Made by a program: the position numbers and the translations under genes. This document shows positions 10,092 to 50,195 of a DNA stretch of 50,731 nucleotides, one piece after another. The notes below the pieces were generated by a model. That model made no database searches. It worked only from the letters and a program-made list of their open reading frames with translations, and was not told the origin of the DNA. The DNA is taken from sequence record PZ445412.1; one strand, written 5' to 3'. The stretch comes from a phage. Position 1 is the first letter of the stretch; every line of letters starts with the position of its first letter.

Positions 10092-10115
10092 AGCGCCTAC
10101 GGGCGCTTTTTTTAT
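10091..10115 (+). terminator. rho-independent terminator-like hairpin before tape measure gene
   Basis: AGCGCC-tacg-GGCGCT followed by TTTTTTTAT. Confidence 0.55.
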
Positions 10116-10128
10116 GAGGGTAAAATAT

Positions 10129-13038
10129 ATGGCTGAACAATTTGCAGGTTTAACACTTGGCGTTAACGTCGAGCAGTTAAACAGGGCTGTAAAGTCATTG
10201 CAGGACTTTAAAAAAGCAAACGACGAAGCAAAGAAAGGCGTTGAGAGCTTTGTTAATGAGGAAGAAATTGCAAAGCAAAGAGCAAAGCAATTAGCTGATG
10301 AATTGGCGAAACAGAGCCGTGAATTTAAACGCATTCAGGACACTGTTGATCCGACAGCGGCGAAAATGCGCAAGCTATCTCAGGCCGCAAGTGATCTTGA
10401 TAAGCTATGGCAAAAGGGCATTGTTCCCGATGAAACGTTTTTCCAGTTGGGGAGTATGCTGGAAACTCAGATCAGTAAGCTGGAGCGTAATAAAAAGGCG
10501 TTAACGGAAGAAGGCCGCGCAGCACTTGAGGAATCAAAAGCCAAAGAGAAAGCAGCGTTAGCCGGAAAAACTTTCCTTGCGGATCTGGAATCGCAAGCCG
10601 CCGCTCTTGGCAAAACAAAAGCCGAATTGCTGGAAATGAAAGCGGCGCAACTTGGCGTAAGTGCTCAGGCAGCGCCATTTATCGCACAGCTTAAAGCGCA
10701 AGAAAAACAGATGAAGTTAACCGGAATTAGCGCTGGGCAATACAAGCAAGCTATGGCGCAACTTCCGGCTCAGATCACTGACGTTGTAACGTCGCTGGCT
10801 TCCGGTATGCCTGTTTGGTTGGTTGCAATCCAGCAGGGTGGACAGATTAAAGATTCTTTCGGCGGCGTTGGTAATACGTTTAAAGCGCTGTTGTCGTTTC
10901 TGAATCCGGTAAACGTTGGCCTTGCCGCATTAGCCGTTTCAATGGGTGCTCTTGTTAAGGCTGGTTATGATGCGTATAAATCGCAACGTGACTTGCAAGA
11001 GGCGTTGGTGCTGACTGGTGGATATGCTGGCACAAGCGGCGCACAGTTCGATAAGCTGGCGCAGGACATTAATAACAGCACTGATGCGACGATAGGAAAC
11101 ATCCGATCTATCGCAACAGAGCTTGCAAAATCCGGCAAGTTCACGATTGATCAGATTAAAGCAATCACGAAGACTACCGCTCAGTGGTCAACTGTAACGG
11201 GTGAATCAAGCGACAAGATAACCGATTACTTTAATAAGATTGCTGGCGATCCGGTTAAAGGTCTTGCAGAGCTAAACGAGCAATTCAACTTTTTAAGCGA
11301 AGGGCAGTTAACTTATATTGCAGACCTGGAGAAAACGAAAGGCAAAACGGAAGCAGTAACGGCGGCGACAAAGTTATTTGCTGATGTTATGGATCAGAGA
11401 TTAGCTAAACTGGCAGACTCCGCAACGCCATTAGAAAAGATGTGGACGAACATTAAAAAATGGGCGTCAGATGCATGGGGTTGGGTTGGGGATCATACGC
11501 TGGCGGCGCTTAACCTGATTATTGACGTTGTAGCCGGAACCGTTGAGCAGGTTCGTTACTTGCTTAATCAGGGTGATATTCTCATTGGTGAGTTTATCGT
11601 GTCTGCAACAAAGGCTATGCAAAAAATACCTGGTCTTGATGGAGTTGGTGATTCAGTAATTGCACAGCAGCAACAGATCATTAATAAATCAAAAGAGCAA
11701 AACAAAGAGCTATTAAAATCAATTGCCGAACGTAACGAGCGAGTCAAAAAAGGCGAGCAGGGTTACATTGACATGATGAAAAATCGTGCGGCGGTTGAAC
11801 AGCAATATGCTACTAAAACAAAGGAGAATATCAGGAAGGAAGCCGAGGAATTAGCCAAGCGCGATAAAAAACAAAAGGCTGAAAAAGTTAAAGTATCGGC
11901 TGGCGATAAGCTGGAAGAACAATATCAGCGTGATATCCTGGCTTTAGAAACTCAATTAAGAGTTTTGAAAGAGCATAAGACGATCACTGATACCATAAGC
12001 CAGCAACGTAAATCTTTATGGGCTGAACAGGCTAAAATTCAGATTCTGCAAGAAGCCTCAACAAAGCGGCAACTTACTGATGAAGAAAAAAGCATTTTAG
12101 CCAACAAAGATAAGATCCTGGCGATGGCTGAACAAAAAGCCATTTTAGGCGATCAGATTGTTGCACAAACGCGCCTTAATCAGTTGCAAGATAGCTCAAT
12201 CAAGTTTATCCAGCAGCAGAAAGCAGCAACAGAAGCACTAGCCAAAACCAGAGGGTTAAGCGAGCGTGAAGCAGCAAGAGCGGCGGAACGTGCAAAGGTT
12301 GAATCTGATTATCTTGCTAAGGGAGGACAGAAAGAAGATCCGCAACTTAAAGCCATGATGGATGCCTTAGACAACCGCTATAAAGAGGAAGATGCTAAAC
12401 GTGCTGATTGGTTGGCTGGAGCTAAAAATGCCTTTGCGGAGTACGGCGAGGAAGCAATGAACATGTATGATAATATCGGCAACATTGCGAGCCAGGCGCT
12501 AAACGGCCTATCGCAACAAATGGCTGATTTTTTGACTACTGGACAAGCCAACTTCAAAGACTTTGCAAAATCAATCATTAGCCTGATTGTTCAGATGATC
12601 ACAAAAATGGTTATCTTCAATAGCATTTCCGGCATGATGGGCGGCTCAACCTGGACGCTTGGAAGCCTTTTAAGCGGTGCTGGTTTTGCTGGCGGCGGTT
12701 ATACTGGCGACGGTGGCAAATATGATCCGGCTGGAGTTGTTCATAAAGGTGAGTTTGTTTTTACCAAAGAGGCAACGCAAAGGATCGGAGCCAAAAACCT
12801 ATATCGCATGATGCGAGGTTATGCAAACGGCGGTCAAGTAGGAAGCGTGACAACTGGCGGCGCTGGCATCAATCGCGGTGCATCGCAATTTGCGTTTGGT
12901 GATATCAACGTTAACATTGACAACGGTCAAGATCCAAAAGGGATGGAAACTGGTATCAAGATGATTTTCACTGAAATGATTCAACGGTCATGCTCGCAAG
13001 GTGGCGAGGTTTATAATTTTGTTCATGGGAGGGCTTAA
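10129..13038 (+). CDS. tail tape measure protein
   Basis: About 970 aa, long coiled-coil regions, Gly-rich C-terminus; start MAEQF at 10129. Confidence 0.85.
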   Translation: MAEQFAGLTLGVNVEQLNRAVKSLQDFKKANDEAKKGVESFVNEEEIAKQRAKQLADELAKQSREFKRIQDTVDPTAAKMRKLSQAASDLDKLWQKGIVPDETFFQLGSMLETQISKLERNKKALTEEGRAALEESKAKEKAALAGKTFLADLESQAAALGKTKAELLEMKAAQLGVSAQAAPFIAQLKAQEKQMKLTGISAGQYKQAMAQLPAQITDVVTSLASGMPVWLVAIQQGGQIKDSFGGVGNTFKALLSFLNPVNVGLAALAVSMGALVKAGYDAYKSQRDLQEALVLTGGYAGTSGAQFDKLAQDINNSTDATIGNIRSIATELAKSGKFTIDQIKAITKTTAQWSTVTGESSDKITDYFNKIAGDPVKGLAELNEQFNFLSEGQLTYIADLEKTKGKTEAVTAATKLFADVMDQRLAKLADSATPLEKMWTNIKKWASDAWGWVGDHTLAALNLIIDVVAGTVEQVRYLLNQGDILIGEFIVSATKAMQKIPGLDGVGDSVIAQQQQIINKSKEQNKELLKSIAERNERVKKGEQGYIDMMKNRAAVEQQYATKTKENIRKEAEELAKRDKKQKAEKVKVSAGDKLEEQYQRDILALETQLRVLKEHKTITDTISQQRKSLWAEQAKIQILQEASTKRQLTDEEKSILANKDKILAMAEQKAILGDQIVAQTRLNQLQDSSIKFIQQQKAATEALAKTRGLSEREAARAAERAKVESDYLAKGGQKEDPQLKAMMDALDNRYKEEDAKRADWLAGAKNAFAEYGEEAMNMYDNIGNIASQALNGLSQQMADFLTTGQANFKDFAKSIISLIVQMITKMVIFNSISGMMGGSTWTLGSLLSGAGFAGGGYTGDGGKYDPAGVVHKGEFVFTKEATQRIGAKNLYRMMRGYANGGQVGSVTTGGAGINRGASQFAFGDINVNIDNGQDPKGMETGIKMIFTEMIQRSCSQGGEVYNFVHGRA

Positions 13039-13385
13039 TGTTAGATGAATTTACCTGGTGTACGCAGATTCAGAGCGGCGGCGGTGTAATGACAACTATC
13101 AATAACGACAGGGAGGTTGTTTTTGGTAACGGTTATCGCCAAAAGGCATCTTCTGGATTTAACACGGAGCGGAGGGAGTTTTCTATTGTTTACGCTGGCA
13201 CTGATTATAAAAAAGTGAAAGCGTTCATGACGGATCACAGATTAAAGCCTTTCTTGTGGAGGATGCCGGATGGTGATTTAGGATTGTTCACGGTTAAAGC
13301 CGGAACGGTAGGACTAACGCCAATAAGCCCAACCGCTCAGGAAGTCAAAGCAACATTCACGGAAGAATTTACATCCATGCGATAA
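13038..13385 (+). CDS. minor tail protein (lambda M-like)
   Basis: 115-aa ORF overlapping tape-measure stop; position. Confidence 0.55.
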   Translation: MLDEFTWCTQIQSGGGVMTTINNDREVVFGNGYRQKASSGFNTERREFSIVYAGTDYKKVKAFMTDHRLKPFLWRMPDGDLGLFTVKAGTVGLTPISPTAQEVKATFTEEFTSMR

Positions 13386-13389
13386 ATCA

Positions 13390-13413
13390 AAGCCGCCATT
13401 GTGCGGCTTTTTT
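13390..13413 (+). terminator. rho-independent terminator
   Basis: GCCGC-cattgt-GCGGC followed by TTTTTTAT. Confidence 0.6.
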
Positions 13414-13457
13414 ATTGTGTCTATAATGGTGCTTTATTGTGTCTATAATGGTGCTTT
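13414..13457 (+). repeat. perfect 22-bp tandem duplication containing TATAAT (tandem promoter candidate)
   Basis: ATTGTGTCTATAATGGTGCTTT repeated twice, directly upstream of RBS GGAGGG of the L-like gene. Confidence 0.7.
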
Positions 13458-13474
13458 ATTGGAGGGCATAGAAT

Positions 13475-14233
13475 ATGGCTGAAAAACAGATCAAAAAGAC
13501 TTTTGAAAATTGTCTGCAATCGCTTTTCCCTGGTGAAATAATTACGCTTGTTGAGGTTGACGGCACAAAATTTGGTGCGCAGGTTTACCGCTTTCATGCT
13601 GAAAATATCGCGTACACTCCAGAGGAATTAATGCAAGCGCGTGAAACTGGAATATTGCCGCCGAAAGATATTAAATTTCGTGGCGAGGTTTACGGGGCGC
13701 GGCCTTTTGGGATTACTGGCATTGGCTTTACAAGTAACGGAAAGGCAGAGAAACCACAATTAGCGCTTTCAAATTTAGATAGCCGCGTATCTGCATTAAT
13801 CAGATCATATAATGGCATGATGCAAGCCAAAGTAACAATTTGGGTTACATCGGCTGATTTAATTGATGAAGAAGGAAACGTGGAGGATGGCGCATATAGA
13901 AAGTTGGTTTATTATATTGAGCGTCCGAATTTTGTTAATCAGACAGTTGCACGTTTTGAATTAACATCACCTTATGATATGGATGGAATTATGATCCCGC
14001 CACGACTCACGCAAAGCGTTTGTTATTGGGCGCAAAGGGGATGGTATAGAAGCGGGAAAGGTTGTGGATATAACGGATCGGCAATGTTCGATAAAGACAA
14101 TAATCCGGTAACAGATCCGAGCAAGGATTATTGCGCCGGAACAGTGACAGCCTGTAAATTGCGCTTTGGCGCTCAAAATGAATTAGATTTCGGCGGTTGC
14201 GCGGTTGCATCACTATTGAGGAAAAACCAATGA
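13475..14233 (+). CDS. minor tail protein (lambda L-like)
   Basis: 252-aa ORF; Cys cluster near C-terminus; position. Confidence 0.6.
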   Translation: MAEKQIKKTFENCLQSLFPGEIITLVEVDGTKFGAQVYRFHAENIAYTPEELMQARETGILPPKDIKFRGEVYGARPFGITGIGFTSNGKAEKPQLALSNLDSRVSALIRSYNGMMQAKVTIWVTSADLIDEEGNVEDGAYRKLVYYIERPNFVNQTVARFELTSPYDMDGIMIPPRLTQSVCYWAQRGWYRSGKGCGYNGSAMFDKDNNPVTDPSKDYCAGTVTACKLRFGAQNELDFGGCAVASLLRKNQ

Positions 14234-14952
14234 TTAACGCAAAAATTAAACTTGAAATTATGCGCCATGCCAATGACATTTATCCTAATGAATGTTGCGG
14301 CCTGGTAACTCAAAAATCACGCGTACAGAAATATCACCGGATCGACAACGTAAGCAAGGAGCCGGAAAAGCATTTTGAAATGGACGCTGAACAATATGCA
14401 GAAGTTGAGGACGGCGGCGCTGATATCATAGCGATAGTTCACAGCCACACAGGGGAAGGGGCAACCACAATCCCTAGCGCACACGATTTGTGCATGTGTG
14501 ATGAAACTGGTGTTTCTTGGGTTATCGTTTCGATACCAGAGGGAGACATGAGAATTATAGAACCGCAATCACGACCTTTGATTGGTCGCCCATGGTCGCT
14601 TGGCGCTTATGATTGTTGGGGGCTTATTATGGCCTGGCATAAAGAGCAAGGCGTGATACTGAATGATTTCCGCAAGCCGTATGAATGGTGGAAGCCGGAA
14701 TATGGTGAAAACCTTTATCAAGATAATTACTTGAAAGAAGGTTTTATAGAAACAGGCGAACCGCCAAAGCCAGGTGATATGATCATAATGCAGTTGCAAG
14801 CGCCAGTATGGAACCATGCCGGAATTTATTTAGGCAACAATCAACTATTGCATCATGCATTCGGCAAGTTGTCGCGAGTTGATTTATATTCTGGATGGTA
14901 TCATGAACACACAACAATGATTTGCAGACATAAGGATCTGAAAAATGAATAA
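14230..14952 (+). CDS. tail assembly protein (lambda K-like, MPN/JAB + NlpC/P60)
   Basis: HSHTGEG JAB-like motif and Cys/His NlpC/P60-like C-terminal half; start MINAKIK at 14230. Confidence 0.65.
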   Translation: MINAKIKLEIMRHANDIYPNECCGLVTQKSRVQKYHRIDNVSKEPEKHFEMDAEQYAEVEDGGADIIAIVHSHTGEGATTIPSAHDLCMCDETGVSWVIVSIPEGDMRIIEPQSRPLIGRPWSLGAYDCWGLIMAWHKEQGVILNDFRKPYEWWKPEYGENLYQDNYLKEGFIETGEPPKPGDMIIMQLQAPVWNHAGIYLGNNQLLHHAFGKLSRVDLYSGWYHEHTTMICRHKDLKNE

Positions 14953-15544
14953 GGTTATCAACGTAAAATTATCAGGCTCATTAGGTCGCCGCTTTGGTGT
15001 TTTCCATAAATATGCTGTTGATAGTTGGCCTGAATGCGTAAGGGCATTATCAAGCCAGGTTGAAGGATTCAAAGAATTTATGCAAAGTGAAATCGGATCA
15101 AAGATGAAATTTGCAATTTTCGTTGATGGTAAAAATGTTGGCCTGAATAATGATAGCGCATGGCGTTGCGCTCGCGAGGTTCGAATTGTTCCGGTTCCAA
15201 CAGGTTCAAAAAGCGGCGGTTTATTTCAGGTTGTTTTGGGTGCTGTTATTATGGTCGCTGCGTTTTTCACTGGTGGTGCATCGCTGGCGGCTATGGGTGC
15301 TTTTTCATCGGCTGCATTTATGATGGGTGGCGCAATGGCTCTTGGCGGAGTAATGCAGATGATTAGCCCACAACAAGGAGGAATGAGAATGGAGAGCCAA
15401 AGCGCAGCAAATAAACCATCATATGCGTTTGGTGGTGCTGTTAATACTACGGCGGCAGGTTATCCGGTATGTTTACCATATGGTTATAGAACGGTTGGCG
15501 GCGCTGTATTCAGTGCTGGCTCATACGCAGAAGATAAACTTTAA
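14945..15544 (+). CDS. tail assembly protein (lambda I-like)
   Basis: 199-aa ORF with Gly/Ala-rich hydrophobic C-terminal region; position before J. Confidence 0.6.
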   Translation: MNKVINVKLSGSLGRRFGVFHKYAVDSWPECVRALSSQVEGFKEFMQSEIGSKMKFAIFVDGKNVGLNNDSAWRCAREVRIVPVPTGSKSGGLFQVVLGAVIMVAAFFTGGASLAAMGAFSSAAFMMGGAMALGGVMQMISPQQGGMRMESQSAANKPSYAFGGAVNTTAAGYPVCLPYGYRTVGGAVFSAGSYAEDKL

Positions 15545-15550
15545 TTATAT

Positions 15551-15578
15551 AAACCCGCCGTTGCGCGGGTTTTTTGTT
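15551..15578 (+). terminator. rho-independent terminator
   Basis: CCCGCC-gttg-CGCGGG followed by TTTTTTGTT. Confidence 0.6.
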
Positions 15579-15601
15579 ACATGTACAATGGCAGCACGTT
15601 T

Positions 15602-15625: not shown

Positions 15626-18600
15626 ATGATCAAAAATATGATAACTGGCAGTAAGGGCGGTTCTTCAAAGCCTCATACACCTGTTGAAATGGAAGATAAC
15701 CTAATTTCAATTAACAGGATCAGAATTCTTTTAGCTGTTTCTGATGGTGAAGTTGATCCAGACTTTTCATTGAAAGATTTATATTTTGATGACGTTCCGG
15801 TTATGAATCAGGATGGTTCGCTAAACTTTCAGAATGTTAAGGCGGAATTCAGACCAGGGACGCAAACGCAGGATTATATTCAGGGGTTTACTGATACAGC
15901 CAGCGAAATTACAGTTGCTCGCGATCTGACAGCCGCAACTCCTTATATTATTTCTGTTACCAATAAAAACCTTTCTGCGATCCGTATTAAAATTTTAATG
16001 CCTCGCGGGGTTACTCAGGAAGATAACGGAGATCTAACAGGTGTTCGCGTTGAATATGCTGTTGATATGGCTGTTGATGGCGCTGAATATAAAGAGGTTT
16101 TGCATGATGTAATTGAAGGTAAAACAATGAGCGGTTACGACAGAAGCCGCCGAATTGATTTACCTGCTTTCAATGAGCGTGTTTTATTGCGCGTCCGTCG
16201 CCTTACAGATAGCACGTCAGCAAGGGTAACGGATCTGATTAAAATGCAAAGCTATGCGGAAGTTGTAGACGCTAAATTTCGTTACCCACTGACTGGTTTA
16301 GTATATGTTGAGTTTGACAGCGAATTATTCCCTAATGCGTTGCCGAATATCAGCATTAAGAAAAAATGGAAAATCATTAATGTTCCGTCAAATTATGATC
16401 CTATTTCCCGCACTTACTCAGGGTCATGGGATGGAACCTGGAAAAAGGCATGGAGTAATAACCCTGCTTTTGTTCTTTATGATTTGATTACCAATCAGCG
16501 TTACGGACTCGATCAAAGAGAGTTAGGCATCGCGCTTGATAAATGGAGCATTTACGAATGTGCGCAGTATTGCGATCAGATGGTTCCAGACGGTAAAGGC
16601 GGAACAGAGCCGCGCTATCTTTGCGACGTTGTGATCCAGAGCCAGGTAGAGGCGTATCAGCTTGTGCGTGATATTTGTTCAATATTCCGTGGCATGAGCT
16701 TTTGGAATGGTGAAAGCCTTTCAATCGTGATCGATAAGCCTCGCGATGCGTCATACATCTTTACTAATGACAACGTGGTTAACGGTGAATTCACTTACAC
16801 GTTTGCCAGCGAAAAAAGCATGTACACGCAATGCAACGTGACTTTCGACGACGAACAAAACATGTATCAACAGGATGTTGAGGGAGTTTTCGAAACTGAG
16901 GCGGCGTTACGCTTTGGCTATAACAGCACGTCAATTACTGCGATTGGATGCACACGACGCAGCGAAGCCAACCGCCGTGGACGCTGGATTTTAAAAACCA
17001 ACGTCAAGAGCACAACGGTAAACTTTGCTACAGGTCTGGAAGGTATGATCCCAACAGTAGGCGATGTGATTGTTGTATCGGATAACTTCTGGTCAAGCGC
17101 TCTAACGCTGAATCTATCAGGTCGAGTGATGGAGGTTAGCGGGTTGCAGGTGTTCACGCCGTTTAAGGTAGACGCAAGAGCAGGTGATCGCATTCTGGTA
17201 AATAAGCCGGATGGTAAGCCAGTTGGTCGAACCATTGCGCGTGTGAGTGATGACGGTAAAACGCTAACGCTAAACACGACATTTGGTTTTGACGTTCAGC
17301 CGGATACCATTTTTGCAATTGAGCGAACCGATATTGCACAGCAACGATATGTTGTAACCGGAATCACTAAGGGTGACGGTGATGAAGAATTTACCTACAA
17401 CATAACGGCTGTTGAATACGATCCGAACAAATACGATGAAATTGATTATGGCGTAAACATTGATGACCGTCCGACTTCAATCGTGCAGCCTGACATTTTG
17501 CCAGCACCGCAAAACGTCAAGATCGAATCTTATTCGCGAGTTGTCCAGGGCGCGAGCGTGGAAACAATGCATGTTTCATGGGATAAGGTTGAATATGCAA
17601 GCCTTTATGAAATGCAGTGGAGAAAAGACAATGGCAACTGGAACAACACGCCGCGCACAGCCAACAAGGAAACGGAAGTTGAAGGAATTTATGAGGGTAA
17701 CTATCACGTAAGGGTTAGATCTGTTGCAGCGAATGGTTCAGCGTCTGGATGGTCAGCAATTGTAAGCGCCGGATTAACTGGCAAGGTTGGCGAACCGGAA
17801 AGGCCAATTAACCTTACTGCGTCTGACAATGAAGTTTTCGGAATTCGCGTAAAATGGGGTATGCCAGAAGGAAGCGGAGACACGGCATATATTGAGTTGC
17901 ATCAAGCGCCAAACGGTTCTGATGGTCATCCTATTGTTGATGAAGCAACGCTCTTAACGCTGATACCGTTCCCGCAATATGAGTATTGGCATTCAATACT
18001 GCCAGCGGGTCATGTTGTCTGGTACAAGGCAAGGGCAGTTGACAAAATCGGTAACGTTTCTGATTGGACTGATTTTGTGCGCGGCATGGCTTCCGACGAT
18101 ACGAGCATTATCACGGATCATATTAAGGTCGATATTGAAAATTCTGATGGCTATAAGTGGTTGCAGGAAAACGCAATAAAGGCCAATGATAAGATCCACA
18201 GCACAGCGGAATCAGTGATTGAAAACGCATTAGCGAATGATAAAGATGTTCGACGTATGCGAGTTGAAAACGGAAAGCGTAAAGCGGAGTTCTTGCAATC
18301 GCTGAAACTCATTGCAGACGAAACAGAAGCAAGGGTAACGCAGGTCACTCAAATGAGTGTGCAATTTGACGAGAAATTAACGGCTCAAAATAGCGAATTG
18401 AGAGAGGTTATTGCTAACAGCACTGAAACCATTAGCCAAAGGATTGATCAGCTTACAGCTACGTTTGAGAGCGAAATTGATGGTGTTAAGCAGGATATCA
18501 AAGCACAGATAACTGATGTTAACCAGGCAATCACCAATGAATCGGAAGCGCGAGCATCAGCGGATAGGGCGTTATCAACTCAAATTGGTGATACCCAATC

Positions 18601-19402
18601 AGCGGTTAACCAGAAACTTGATTCATGGGTTAACGGTACAAGCGTTGGTGCGATGTACGGAGTTAAGTTGGGGATCAGGTATAACGGGCAGGAATATAGC
18701 GCAGGTATGGCTCTTTCTCTTGTCGCTGATGGTGGCGGAGTTAAATCACAATTCCTGTTTGATGCCGGAAGATTTGCGATCATCAACAATGCTCAAAGCG
18801 GAGCCTTTACATTGCCGTTTGTAGTTGAGAATAACCAGGTGTTTATCAATAGCTTGCTTGTGAAAAACGGCTCTATTGGTAACGCTCAGATAGCTAACTT
18901 CATTAACTCTAACAACTGGCAAAGCGGTGTTGCAGGTTGGGCGATTAACAAGGATGGTTATGCCGAATTCAACCAAGTAACTGTAAGGGGTGGCGTTTAT
19001 GCTTCATACGGATCATTCACTGGCAGCGTTTACGCGCAAGACGGATGGTTTAGGGGTACTGTTTACGCTGAAAAAATTGAGGGTGACGTTGCAAAGGCTG
19101 TTGTTCTTCCGTTTAACGGATCGGTTCACATTCCGGCGGTTAACTATAACAGACACCTTGTGATCCCTTATGTTGGTATTCACGGGTACACATATTCAGG
19201 TGGTACATGGGGCGGCGGTACTGTTTGGGTTGATTCAACATATGGTGGTCGCCTTGCTAACGTTCGGGCAACTGCAATGCATGGCGGATCAAGTGGTTAT
19301 GTTCTGTTGCCAGCAGGTAACGCAACCACGCTTTCATATGGTGGAGATCTAAACCACGCAAACGCAGTACCGATCTTAACAGTTCTGTTATTCAAAGCAT
19401 AA
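15626..19402 (+). CDS. central tail fibre / host specificity protein (lambda J-like)
   Basis: 1258-aa ORF, largest gene, downstream of K/I-like genes; strong terminator downstream. Confidence 0.85.
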   Translation: MIKNMITGSKGGSSKPHTPVEMEDNLISINRIRILLAVSDGEVDPDFSLKDLYFDDVPVMNQDGSLNFQNVKAEFRPGTQTQDYIQGFTDTASEITVARDLTAATPYIISVTNKNLSAIRIKILMPRGVTQEDNGDLTGVRVEYAVDMAVDGAEYKEVLHDVIEGKTMSGYDRSRRIDLPAFNERVLLRVRRLTDSTSARVTDLIKMQSYAEVVDAKFRYPLTGLVYVEFDSELFPNALPNISIKKKWKIINVPSNYDPISRTYSGSWDGTWKKAWSNNPAFVLYDLITNQRYGLDQRELGIALDKWSIYECAQYCDQMVPDGKGGTEPRYLCDVVIQSQVEAYQLVRDICSIFRGMSFWNGESLSIVIDKPRDASYIFTNDNVVNGEFTYTFASEKSMYTQCNVTFDDEQNMYQQDVEGVFETEAALRFGYNSTSITAIGCTRRSEANRRGRWILKTNVKSTTVNFATGLEGMIPTVGDVIVVSDNFWSSALTLNLSGRVMEVSGLQVFTPFKVDARAGDRILVNKPDGKPVGRTIARVSDDGKTLTLNTTFGFDVQPDTIFAIERTDIAQQRYVVTGITKGDGDEEFTYNITAVEYDPNKYDEIDYGVNIDDRPTSIVQPDILPAPQNVKIESYSRVVQGASVETMHVSWDKVEYASLYEMQWRKDNGNWNNTPRTANKETEVEGIYEGNYHVRVRSVAANGSASGWSAIVSAGLTGKVGEPERPINLTASDNEVFGIRVKWGMPEGSGDTAYIELHQAPNGSDGHPIVDEATLLTLIPFPQYEYWHSILPAGHVVWYKARAVDKIGNVSDWTDFVRGMASDDTSIITDHIKVDIENSDGYKWLQENAIKANDKIHSTAESVIENALANDKDVRRMRVENGKRKAEFLQSLKLIADETEARVTQVTQMSVQFDEKLTAQNSELREVIANSTETISQRIDQLTATFESEIDGVKQDIKAQITDVNQAITNESEARASADRALSTQIGDTQSAVNQKLDSWVNGTSVGAMYGVKLGIRYNGQEYSAGMALSLVADGGGVKSQFLFDAGRFAIINNAQSGAFTLPFVVENNQVFINSLLVKNGSIGNAQIANFINSNNWQSGVAGWAINKDGYAEFNQVTVRGGVYASYGSFTGSVYAQDGWFRGTVYAEKIEGDVAKAVVLPFNGSVHIPAVNYNRHLVIPYVGIHGYTYSGGTWGGGTVWVDSTYGGRLANVRATAMHGGSSGYVLLPAGNATTLSYGGDLNHANAVPILTVLLFKA

Positions 19403-20918: not shown

Positions 20919-20938
20919 ATAGCACTTTTTGCTAAAAC
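20917..20938 (+). promoter_or_regulatory. conserved 22-bp box plus hairpin element
   Basis: AAATAGCACTTTTTGCTAAAAC; hairpin GATGCGTG-gtatacta-CACGCATC at 20949-20972. Confidence 0.6.
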
Positions 20939-22732: not shown

Positions 22733-23216
22733 TTTCTGCTACCTTTTCCGCCTGAGTTGCTTGTTGTGGCATGTTAGGCCACGGGCTAATCGCTTCACGT
22801 TCTGCAACAGGCTTTTCCGGTTCAATCCCTAAAAACTTGCCAACAAACTCACCAACGAAATTAGAGCTATCACTTATATAAACGTGCATCCGATCCAGAT
22901 CTGAGGACGTTACACTATTTGGCGCAATCATGATGCGCTGTTGATGAAAGCCGATATACATCACATTAACAGGGCGCTCAAGTGCCCCAGGGTTTGGGGC
23001 AATAACTCCCATGATCCAACAATAATGGATTTGACCATCGCCTAAAGGCTCACATCCAGCATTTAGCCAGTTCACTTTCTGATGTGGGAACATCATAGAC
23101 GAATCTGTTGCGTCACGCCGTAGCGACCAATTAACGCCACCAATTTCAATATTTGGACGTGGGCGCATACCGTTAAACTGAGTCACACCAGCACCATTCT
23201 GATTCATGTTTTGCAT
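22719..23216 (-). CDS. hypothetical protein
   Basis: 165-aa ORF, co-oriented, overlapping the downstream ORF. Confidence 0.4.
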   Translation of the reverse strand: MQNMNQNGAGVTQFNGMRPRPNIEIGGVNWSLRRDATDSSMMFPHQKVNWLNAGCEPLGDGQIHYCWIMGVIAPNPGALERPVNVMYIGFHQQRIMIAPNSVTSSDLDRMHVYISDSSNFVGEFVGKFLGIEPEKPVAEREAISPWPNMPQQATQAEKVAENDEK

Positions 23217-24469: not shown

Positions 24470-26389
24470 TTATGGTAGTTCTGGAATTGTTGTGGCATTA
24501 CCTCCAGCCAATCCAGCAATCATTTCCTTCAATTGTTCAATATCAGCTTTTAAACTTGAAACTTCACTTTCTAACGCTTCATTTTTACCCTGCAACTCTT
24601 GAACAACAACAATAAGATCAGAAATAACGGCGCGATCATTAACGTTCATGATTTCGAATTCATCACCGTTTTCATCTGTTGCAGTTCCGCCAAAGAAAAC
24701 GTAAGTGTCGTCTATTTCAGCCATTTGTTGCGCAAGGTATCCACGCTGCAAAACATGGTTTCCCTTATAATAAAACTCCATAACACCAATCTGTTTAACG
24801 CGATCCCATGCGCCAGGCTTAGGAGGTTCAAATCTATCCTTAATACGAACATCAGATCCCTGAATAGCGCAGCGCCCCTCAGGTGTATAGAATCCATTAT
24901 CGTTTCGCATCGAGTACCATACGACACTACCGCCAAATGTGTTAAAAGACCAAACATATTGATACTGTTGCCCAGGGACACCTGCAACATAGTTTTGAAC
25001 ACCAAACCACGAGTTTTCAACATATGTAAGAAGGTTTGCGCCATCGCTTGATTGTTGAGATTTTTCTTTAATCAAAGCAGCAGTCCACGGGCCTCCCTGA
25101 CCATAATAAGCCTTAGCCCACACCGCATTAAATGTAACATCCTGATCAATTCCAACCCCTAAATTTCGTCTTGCTTGAGCTACATTATCAGCACCAGTAC
25201 CACCTTGCGCAATACCTAGAGCCGACCAACCTTTTAGATAGCGATTGAACATACCCCATGTTCCATCATTCCTTACAGATATCTCTTTTAAACCATCTGG
25301 AGAAAGCATTGACGTGAAAACAGAATCCTGAATTATTCTATCAACTTGCAAATTTATTTTTGCTTGCGTAACGTTTTCAGCACCAGTGCCGCCAGCGCCA
25401 ATAGAAAGTGCCGATGTGCTGTTGTTGTCATTACGTGCAACTCGCCATTCTCCATTGTTAGCGATCCGCAATTCATAAGTCCATGCAGGATTTCTGAAAG
25501 AGTTGTAAGCGCCAGTATCTTGATCTTTTACAGAATTAACCGCCTCAACTTTCAAAGCTTCCCTTGCAAGGTCTTTGTTTGCAAGATCATTAAGGTTTTG
25601 ATCCTTATGCAGCAGATTTTCAGGTTGCACCTGTTGCGCCCATTGGCGAGCTTCATCACGCGCAGTCTCAGCGCCAGCCTTTGCATTATCAGCACCAACC
25701 TTTGATTGCTCTGCGGCGAATTGTGCGTTTTCCGCTTCATCACGCGCGTCTAACGCTTCATTTTTAATTCCGGTTATCTCAGTAACGGCAGAATCTTTAA
25801 TCTGTTGCGTTTGGTTTTTTATTGCGTCCGTGTCTGCCTTAATCTGATTGGTTTCGGCAACAGCGGCATTCTTAATCTGTTGAGTTTCAGAAACAGCGGT
25901 ATCCTTAATCTGTTGCGTTTCAGTAACAGCAGCATCCTTTATTGTTTGCGTGTAGTTTTTTAATTGTTCCGTCGCGGCTCGGTCTGCATCAGTTTTTTGC
26001 GCGGAAGCCTCAGCGCGAGCAACAAGATCCTGTATTGTTTTTAAATCAAAGTTTTTGAAAAATTCAATCGCTTCCTCAATAACAGTTTCTTTACTTTGGT
26101 AATAGCGCAGCGTTTCCGCAACATCTTGCGCCATTCCATCTACCGTTAAAGAGTCATTCAACAGGATCACATAATTTCCGTTTTCTACTGGCTCGCCGTC
26201 AGTCTGGATCGCTTTCATTTCCGTGTCACTTACAATATCGCTAATCACAGCCAATTTAAGAGGCGATGTGAGAAATACGATTGTTGCGCCAGCGCGGATA
26301 AGAGAAAGAGGCTCACGCCATTTTGTGCCAGTACCAGTAATAACGCCTTGCGCGTCCATTGCAGCCGTACCAGTGCGATATAAAGCCAT
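24470..26389 (-). CDS. side tail fibre with C-terminal chaperone-like domain
   Basis: 639 aa; about 11-aa tandem repeats (TQQIKDTAVSE-like); C-terminal coiled-coil tail; own sigma70-like promoter and terminator. Confidence 0.7.
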   Translation of the reverse strand: MALYRTGTAAMDAQGVITGTGTKWREPLSLIRAGATIVFLTSPLKLAVISDIVSDTEMKAIQTDGEPVENGNYVILLNDSLTVDGMAQDVAETLRYYQSKETVIEEAIEFFKNFDLKTIQDLVARAEASAQKTDADRAATEQLKNYTQTIKDAAVTETQQIKDTAVSETQQIKNAAVAETNQIKADTDAIKNQTQQIKDSAVTEITGIKNEALDARDEAENAQFAAEQSKVGADNAKAGAETARDEARQWAQQVQPENLLHKDQNLNDLANKDLAREALKVEAVNSVKDQDTGAYNSFRNPAWTYELRIANNGEWRVARNDNNSTSALSIGAGGTGAENVTQAKINLQVDRIIQDSVFTSMLSPDGLKEISVRNDGTWGMFNRYLKGWSALGIAQGGTGADNVAQARRNLGVGIDQDVTFNAVWAKAYYGQGGPWTAALIKEKSQQSSDGANLLTYVENSWFGVQNYVAGVPGQQYQYVWSFNTFGGSVVWYSMRNDNGFYTPEGRCAIQGSDVRIKDRFEPPKPGAWDRVKQIGVMEFYYKGNHVLQRGYLAQQMAEIDDTYVFFGGTATDENGDEFEIMNVNDRAVISDLIVVVQELQGKNEALESEVSSLKADIEQLKEMIAGLAGGNATTIPELP

Positions 26390-41573: not shown

Positions 41574-41628
41574 TTTGTAATCCTCAATTCGTTTCGATGA
41601 AGTAATCATAGCAATTCGTGACTGATTG

Positions 41629-41650
41629 GTTTTAACAAAAAGTGCTATTC
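41629..41650 (-). promoter_or_regulatory. conserved 22-bp box, first element of leftward operon
   Basis: Box followed by CCAATCAG, CACGAATTGCTA and TCATCGAAACGAATTGAGG. Confidence 0.55.
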
Positions 41651-41656
41651 ATGCGA

Positions 41657-41684
41657 TAGACCGATTGGTCTAGACCGTTTGGTC
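41657..41684. promoter_or_regulatory. two abutting 14-bp palindromes (operator-like)
   Basis: AGACCGATTGGTCT and AGACCGTTTGGTCT just upstream of the first leftward box. Confidence 0.55.
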
Positions 41685-41721
41685 TAATGAACACATCGTT
41701 TTCTGTATCGAACGGATTCAC

Positions 41722-41815
41722 GATCACGTTATGCGATCACAATATGATCATGTTGATGATTGATGTGTGAGTTGATTTGATTTTATTTGATGGGATTTGA
41801 TTAGATTTGAGTAGC
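41722..41815. repeat. GATC cluster plus 10-bp-phased ATTTGA iterons (candidate origin or protein-binding array)
   Basis: Three GATC within 30 bp; ATTTGA at 41775, 41785, 41795, 41805 with exact 10-bp spacing. Confidence 0.6.
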
Positions 41816-42248
41816 TAGTGAGCAGAAATAATCACACCTTGCCGATCAGAGAAAACTTTTCCCGCAAAACATCACTCCAGGCTAGCTCTTGTCTCAATCT
41901 GTTTTCTGCTGTCTCAATTCGCACATTCCGCAAAAAAGCGAAACGGTTCACAAACAGAAAGAACAAATAAATCACCTATATAATAATAATAAAATCAACT
42001 AGTTAGTTATATATATCTATTTATGGTTATATATCTGTCTTAGTTGTTCTGTCTATATAGGCATACCCTGGTATATTTCAATTTATATATTGATATTGGT
42101 ATCTATGGGTATATATATCTATATATGCTCGATTTCCGGCGCAAACTGGTGAACAGGCGAAAAAGACAAGCGTTTTCATTGCTTTGCGTTGAAATTTGTC
42201 TCAAATCGCATATTGAAATGTATTAAGAACCAAAAGAACTTGACACGT

Positions 42249-50124: not shown

Positions 50125-50150
50125 AACCCGCCTTGTGCGGGTTTTTTTGT
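50125..50150 (+). terminator. rho-independent terminator upstream of terS
   Basis: CCCGCC-ttgt-GCGGG followed by TTTTTTTGT. Confidence 0.6.
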
Positions 50151-50195
50151 GCCTACAATTTAGCTATAATCACGCCTCAACAGGAGGATTTTATT

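Follow-up and report, generated by a model that had tools for sequence, protein, structure and literature searches.

A lineage-specific 22-bp tandem duplication with a TATAAT box in front of the distal tail genes of Escherichia phage DanielBernoulli

Introduction

The closest described counterpart of the locus analysed here is found in phage TLS (AY308796 / NC_009540), the archetype of the genus Tlsvirus, whose 2024 re-annotation lists the intrinsic terminator between the tail genes M and L as T46 (PMC11447400, Table S1). That re-annotation was stringent, also employed SAPPHIRE.CNN and accepted three promoters in the whole genome, none of them after T46. Almost no promoters were found in the late region of TLS (PMC11447400). 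For phage T1, the same work cites the genome paper of that phage (Roberts et al., 2004) for the description of late 'transcriptons', i.e. terminator-flanked units that contain RpoD promoters. GenBank records of T1, Sazh and Stevie annotate the same M/L terminator, and those of LL5, Sazh, Stevie and U136B annotate a ribosome-binding site (RBS) at the GGAGGG motif that precedes L. Our literature search found no mapped transcription start in Drexlerviridae, the genome papers resting on prediction.

Escherichia phage DanielBernoulli (Bas08; MZ501059.1) is a T1-like coliphage of 50,731 bp that belongs to Drexlerviridae, Tempevirinae, Tlsvirus and is part of the BASEL collection; its receptors are TolC and the LPS core (BASEL paper). 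A preliminary description of its sequence had drawn attention to a perfect 22-bp tandem duplication with a TATAAT in each copy, and had offered two readings of it, tandem promoters boosting the expression of the distal tail genes or a recent slippage duplication. We found no discussion of this repeat in the BASEL paper or in other papers that name DanielBernoulli.

Results

Identity of the genome and layout of its tail genes

The window, that is, the whole 50,731-nt stretch of DNA analysed here (PZ445412.1), is MZ501059.1 rotated by 536 bp, with the large terminase gene in first place; its segment 12900-14000 matches DanielBernoulli at 100% in megablast. Pfam searches confirmed a lambda-like distal tail block with the order M, terminator, repeat, L-K-I-J, in which the L-like gene is the first after the repeat:

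10114-13038, tape measure (TMP_2 and Tape_meas_lam_C in Pfam)
13038..13385, plus strand, M-like minor tail protein of 115 aa (PF05939, E=6.6e-19, model positions 2-108 of 108)
13389..13413, plus strand, intrinsic terminator from the terminator scan, with stem AAAGCCGC/GCGGCTTT, loop CATTGT and a T6 run at 13408-13413
13461..13466, plus strand, Shine-Dalgarno sequence (SD) GGAGGG of the L-like gene, 8 nt 5' of the ATG at 13475
13475..14233, plus strand, L-like minor tail (tail tip) protein (PF05100, E=2.3e-45)
14197-14952, K-like protein (Prok-JAB and NlpC_P60 in Pfam)
14945-15544, I-like protein (Lambda_tail_I, PF06805)
15626-19402, J-like protein (tail tip and FNIII-A J domains in Pfam)

The stop codon of the M-like gene (13383-13385) lies just 5' of the terminator, whose hairpin (13389-13410) consists of eight pairs, five of them G-C, and a 6-nt loop, is followed by the T-run and has a predicted energy of -11.9 kcal/mol. 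Per-sequence folds indicated that relatives retain the hairpin with other stems (GCCCGC/GCGGGC, GCCCCC/GGGGGC and GCCTCC/GGGGGC), the changes in the two arms compensating each other. RNAalifold returned no consensus structure of the terminator over the relatives, the underlying MAFFT alignment not being structure-aware. An Rfam search of positions 13200-13700 at E<=1 gave only sub-threshold, terminator-like chance matches and no family at threshold, so that no known RNA family appears to be involved.

Several features of the neighbourhood deserve mention in their own right. The deposited start of the M-like gene (bas08_0018, window position 13089) appears to lie 17 codons too far downstream; the open reading frame (ORF) from ATG 13038 overlaps the tape-measure stop codon as TAATG, spans PF05939 positions 2-108 and resembles in its start T1 gp37, which begins 3 nt past the tape-measure gene. 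The best match to the sigma70 consensus in the neighbourhood (TTAACA-16-TATAAT, 11/12 positions) is on the minus strand at 13911-13938, antisense within the L gene and directed toward the repeat. A minus-strand ORF of 58 aa (13421-13597) was taken as spurious, being antisense to the well-supported L gene. Finally, over the tail region the window shares 96% identity with OR786094.1, a record labelled 'Streptococcus phage MBBL140' with Streptococcus agalactiae as host; mislabelling or contamination of that record is the probable cause.

Structure of the repeat

The unit ATTGTGTCTATAATGGTGCTTT is found at 13414-13435 and again, as a perfect tandem copy, at 13436-13457, between the terminator hairpin and the RBS of the L-like gene, and the two identical TATAAT elements are 22 bp apart; in these respects the preliminary description was accurate. 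Tandem Repeats Finder delineated a full tract of period 22 (13411-13461; 2.3 copies, 100% matches, no indels, score 102); among the perfect tandem repeats of the genome it ranks first. Its parts are as follows:

13411..13461, plus strand, whole tract, TTTATTG + TGTCTATAATGGTGC + TTTATTG + TGTCTATAATGGTGC + TTTATTG, with a 15-nt core and heptamers that start at 13411, 13433 and 13455
13414..13435, plus strand, first copy of the unit, with TATAAT (P1) at 13422-13427, which retains the ancestral distance to the candidate -35 box
13436..13457, plus strand, second copy of the unit, with TATAAT (P2) at 13444-13449, which retains the ancestral distance to the RBS

Allowing up to 3 mismatches, we found no further site for the unit in the window, and none of 100 dinucleotide-preserving shuffles of the window yielded a single unit match at the same tolerance.

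The window also holds at least 16 copies of the 21-nt direct repeat aaATAGCACnnnTTGnTAAAA (e.g. at 20919, 30607 and 43408 on the plus strand and at 41648, 37338 and 5716 on the minus strand), which has been described for TLS, where its function is unknown (PMC11447400). We considered whether the 22-bp unit is related to this element and decided against it, since no match between the two is seen on either strand and the 16 copies are all elsewhere. Also rejected was a long-range helix based on an 11-nt complementarity of the 3' end of M (13347-13357) with each repeat unit, one arm of which is changed in locus L004 with no compensation in the other.

Other repeats were seen elsewhere in the window. 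An imperfect 33-bp tandem repeat (25837-25951; 3.5 copies, 83% matches, score 142) sits in a minus-strand ORF of 639 aa (24470-26389) and probably represents an 11-residue protein repeat. A non-coding segment of ~430 bp between divergent gene blocks (~41610-42040) is rich in short repeats (TAGACCGATTGGTC/TAGACCGTTTGGTC, CGATCAC twice and a TGATT-type repeat of 8.6 copies) and may harbour an origin of replication or control elements of the early genes.

Origin of the second copy

Among the approximately 50 Tls-type GenBank records, the two-copy state was found only in MZ501059. A 1.1-kb query (1101 nt) matched 53 phage records, and the relatives among the matches listed covered 1078-1081 nt of it. 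A 95-nt query with the repeat at its centre aligned unbroken over its full length with MZ501059 only; in other Tls-type records the alignment spanned 70-75 nt or ended at query position 54. Each of the 38 IMG/VR loci collected via the L protein had at most one copy, and the sequence of the two-copy junction was absent from IMG/VR, from the JGI metagenome contigs and from the GTDB contigs (one genome per species). Between the window and its closest relatives, Citrobacter phage CF1 DK-2017 and Salmonella phage YSP2, we counted 80-88 substitutions over 3.75 kb, and over this distance the 22-nt gap is the sole indel. Since the relatives have a single copy, the junction is absent from the collections and the extra unit is the sole indel, the duplication is derived and maps to the terminal branch leading to DanielBernoulli. 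The preliminary description had pointed to single-copy relatives with unchanged expression as a possible objection; single-copy relatives are indeed the rule in the ~50 Tls-type records, and this bears on copy number only.

The single-copy Tls-type spacers read CTTTTT-TTTATTG-TGTCTATAATGGTGC-TTTATTG-GAGGG, with a start-to-start spacing of the two heptamers of 22 bp, so that the ancestor already carried a 7-bp direct repeat at exactly the period of the duplication. Slippage or unequal exchange between these heptamers in the ancestral M/L spacer would produce the observed structure, and the three heptamers and two cores in the window are precisely the product expected from two 7-bp repeats. The hallmarks of slippage are all present, namely perfect head-to-tail copies, an ancestral direct repeat whose spacing equals the period, and a derived state confined to one lineage. 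Together with the unique two-copy state and the sole indel over 3.75 kb, they make the second reading of the preliminary description, a recent slippage duplication, very probably the correct one. As to slippage versus recombination, we infer the pathway from established knowledge of microhomology-mediated duplications.

A formal 'zero-copy' layout exists in the NBD2-type phages (L031, which is vB_EcoS_NBD2, and L029), which read GGGGGCTTTTTTATTGGAGGT, with the T-run abutting the RBS. These are distant phages (their L protein is ~74-77% identical), and their layout is evidence that the module can be absent and no proof of its deletion by the slippage route.

Recurrence of the terminator and TAnAAT arrangement

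In an alignment of 22 distinct M/L spacers, three elements were conserved: the terminator hairpin, its T-run and a hexamer TAnAAT, in which T, A, A and A reach 90% or more; the stretch from the -10 hexamer to the RBS could not be aligned. The motif TTG(T/C)GC was located exactly 17 bp 5' of TAnAAT in 14 of the 19 distinct spacers that carry the hexamer. A TGn extended -10 element was seen at M/L in eight Drexlerviridae lineages; it is missing from the Tls group, and GTC precedes both TATAAT copies of DanielBernoulli. A similar arrangement recurs at the I/J junction, where 12 distinct variants were compared; in 11 of them the spacer is exactly 17 bp long and varies in sequence, and 10 have TATAAT. 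T1 has TTGCGC-17-TAGAAT at M/L and TTGCGC-17-TATAAT at I/J (22793-22830 and 24972-25010 of our locus L041). On the late strand of the window there are three such modules, at 13389-13427, 15551-15589 and 50125-50170, the last of which, upstream of the small terminase gene (terS), has a natural pair of -10-like hexamers 11 bp apart:

13399..13404, plus strand, candidate -35 box TTGTGC of the M/L module, in the loop and 3' stem of the terminator (3/6 matches, TTG kept), 17 bp 5' of the first TATAAT
15551..15589, plus strand, I/J module with a hairpin at 15551-15572, TTGCGC at 15561-15566, a 17-bp spacer and TACAAT at 15584-15589
50125..50170, plus strand, module before the small terminase gene, with a hairpin at 50125-50143, TTGTGC at 50133, TACAAT at 50154 (15-bp spacer) and TATAAT at 50165

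Two side observations concern the I/J junction. The single variant with a 19-bp spacer is that of Salmonella phage 36 (locus L003; KR296690), in which the terminators at both M/L and I/J have T8 where its relatives have T6, likely a homopolymer sequencing error. The 'DR8' reported at I/J in the TLS paper overlaps the RBS of the J gene and is conserved family-wide.

In DanielBernoulli the -10 hexamers at 13422 and 13444 are both 6/6 TATAAT, with A2 and T6 present. The -35 match is 3/6 for each, P1 having TTGTGC, with its TTG, at 17 bp and P2 having TCTATA, which lacks the TTG, at 18 bp; a sigma70 scan that required at least 4/6 matches per hexamer called neither. The distance between TTG and the -10 hexamer is fixed at 17 bp across divergent spacers and at independent junctions, as a sigma70 promoter would predict and terminator function would not, and for this reason we consider that the TAnAAT box with its TTG(T/C)GC is probably, with odds somewhat better than even, a sigma70 promoter. 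Such a promoter would fit the 'transcripton' picture that PMC11447400 attributes to the T1 genome paper. Transcription of the upstream tail genes would stop at the terminator hairpin, part of whose loop and 3' stem, TTG(T/C)GC, would double as a -35 box for the TAnAAT 17 bp downstream. The host sigma70 promoter formed in this way would let transcription start afresh for the tail-tip genes L-K-I-J.

It is also conceivable that TAnAAT is no promoter and instead binds a protein, signals RNA processing or belongs to the downstream context of the terminator, in which case the duplication would reflect neutral slippage in non-promoter DNA. Our search found no experimental start site for Drexlerviridae, the authors of the TLS re-annotation accepted no promoter at M/L, and the -35-like bases form part of the hairpin, such that the conservation of TTG(T/C)GC may reflect the recurrent terminator rather than a -35 role. 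The hexamer, moreover, is absent at M/L in three lineages (L034 and the NBD2-type L031 and L029), where the T-run of the terminator runs into the RBS (TTTTTTATTGGAGG; ~1470-1500 in L031). In these phages L must be expressed by read-through, and the candidate promoter is thus dispensable in some lineages. What speaks against this view is that the hexamer is sigma70 -10-like, with A2 and T6 invariant, that it keeps its 17-bp distance from TTG in highly divergent spacers at two independent junctions, that a TGn has been added in eight lineages, and that no Rfam family reaches threshold near the repeat. To our knowledge, terminators have no requirement for TATAAT 8-11 nt 3' of the U-tract. We therefore regard a non-promoter role as unlikely, and a probable sigma70 promoter is assumed below.

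Expected effect on tail-tip gene expression

If the module is a promoter, the duplication has divided its ancestral geometry between two sites:

P1, upstream copy, TTGTGC-17-TATAAT in the ancestral arrangement, with a TTG-type -35 and no TGn; predicted start at 13434-13436, giving a leader of ~39 nt with the second TATAAT at ~+9 to +14 and a 5' end ~25 nt 5' of the SD
P2, downstream copy, TATAAT with TCTATA at 18 bp, with neither a TTG-type -35 nor TGn; predicted start at ~13456-13458, giving a leader of ~17 nt and a 5' end ~3 nt 5' of the SD

Thus, P1 would keep the full promoter geometry with a leader longer by ~22 nt, and all that P2 would retain is its -10 box and the original spacing from the RBS. 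The open complex of RNA polymerase spans roughly -55 to +20. With 22 bp between them, P1 and P2 fall inside one polymerase footprint and would not be occupied simultaneously, competing rather than adding up. Functional tandem promoters are expected to have sufficient recognition elements for each start, and P2 has neither a TTG-type -35 nor TGn. In the read-through RNA, the predicted probability that the SD is unpaired is 0.41 with one copy and 0.35 with two, which indicates no clear structural consequence. Of the claim that tandem promoters boost tail-gene expression, the part that stands is that the TATAAT belongs to a promoter-like module conserved across Drexlerviridae; boosting is not favoured, as only P1 keeps its -35 and the two sites overlap. 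The net effect on tail-tip expression would most likely be small or nil, and the second copy could have been fixed by drift or by a plaque-purification bottleneck. We infer near-neutrality, as well as promoter activity and the start sites, from the layout of the locus. A modest increase, through P2 firing or a better leader, is possible, as is a decrease, by occlusion or by a sigma-dependent pause at the downstream TATAAT.

An adaptive reading would have both TATAAT elements fire, or the longer A/U-rich P1 leader aid translation of L, so that the output of L-K-I-J is raised and selected. Both -10 hexamers are perfect, and paired hexamers are found elsewhere, not only past the terminator before terS in the same genome, 11 bp apart, but also at M/L in locus L011 (TATAAT followed by TACAAT). 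The ancestral distance from the -10 box to the SD is short in Tls-type phages, 11 nt compared with 10-21 nt or more in other lineages; because of this short distance a P2-type transcript would start only ~3 nt 5' of the SD, in comparison with the P1 leader of ~39 nt that follows from the duplication. Nevertheless, P2 has TCTATA at 18 bp in place of a TTG-type -35 and lacks TGn, occupancy of the two sites would be mutually exclusive, the predicted accessibility of the SD barely shifts, and the allele is seen in none of ~50 relatives and in no metagenomic contig, with no sign of recurrent selection. Hence, selected tandem promoters appear distinctly improbable. The same holds for the more general proposition that the duplication is non-neutral because the second -10, ~10 nt past the P1 start, adds a start site, a sigma70-dependent pause or a longer leader; this, too, we consider doubtful. 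If true, it would alter the stoichiometry of M to L-K-I-J.

Discussion

The account that we favour, a recent and lineage-specific slippage duplication of the -10 box of a probable sigma70 promoter with a small net effect, has in our estimate a probability of about 0.7. Short tandem repeats are usually collapsed by assemblers rather than expanded. An artefact of sequencing or assembly, with only one copy in the real phage, might be suspected from a duplication that is present in a single record and comes from a short-read assembly, and is nevertheless very improbable, given that the 51-bp tract is well inside one Illumina NextSeq read at a coverage of 50-100x, that the authors settled ambiguities by PCR and Sanger sequencing (BASEL paper), that an assembly error would be expected to remove a copy, and that the tract is exactly the structure predicted from the ancestral 7-bp microhomology. 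The duplication is real but ordinary, a case of textbook slippage whose product is the TLS T46 spacer plus one unit.

By itself, the duplication matters little, its chief use being to mark the Bas08 strain. More is to be gained from its context, an intrinsic terminator whose loop doubles as a candidate -35 box at two or three junctions of late genes across the Drexlerviridae, T1 among them. The natural series of zero, one and two copies in NBD2, TLS and DanielBernoulli provides cheap material for studying this candidate terminator/promoter module, and, should the second copy prove non-neutral, DanielBernoulli and TLS would make a natural pair for learning how Drexlerviridae insulate and restart late transcription.

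TLS is the nearest comparison. From the stop codon of M to the start codon of L it is identical to DanielBernoulli, including the hairpin, the T-run, the TGTCTATAATGGTGC core, the TTTATTG flanks and the GGAGGG RBS, except for the extra 22 bp; TLS has one copy, as does every other Tls-type phage examined, whereas DanielBernoulli has two. The TLS paper annotates the terminator at M/L and no promoter (PMC11447400). T1 shares the layout at both M/L and I/J, directly 3' of annotated terminators, but has a single -10 box, and no promoters are annotated beside the terminators in its GenBank record.

Closely spaced tandem sigma70 promoters are known, e.g. E. coli gal P1/P2, which likewise place two -10 hexamers for the same gene within one polymerase footprint. 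In cases of the gal type, however, each start has determinants of its own, an extended -10 or an activator, whereas P2 of DanielBernoulli has the -10 box only. Pause elements of the lambda PR' type similarly consist of a -10-like non-template sequence early in the transcript, and the second TATAAT would lie at ~+9 to +14 of the predicted P1 transcript; by this analogy, sigma70-dependent pausing at the second TATAAT is conceivable. Unlike the DanielBernoulli repeat, the lambda elements are nearer +1 and serve the loading of Q, and we know of no Q-like antiterminator in Drexlerviridae. The best fit is to the slipped-strand tandem duplications of bacteria and phages, with which the DanielBernoulli repeat shares the perfect copies, a period equal to the spacing of the ancestral repeats (7 bp, 22 bp apart) and the restriction to a single lineage. 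Its mechanism appears no different from theirs, and its only peculiarity is the -10 box inside the duplicated segment.
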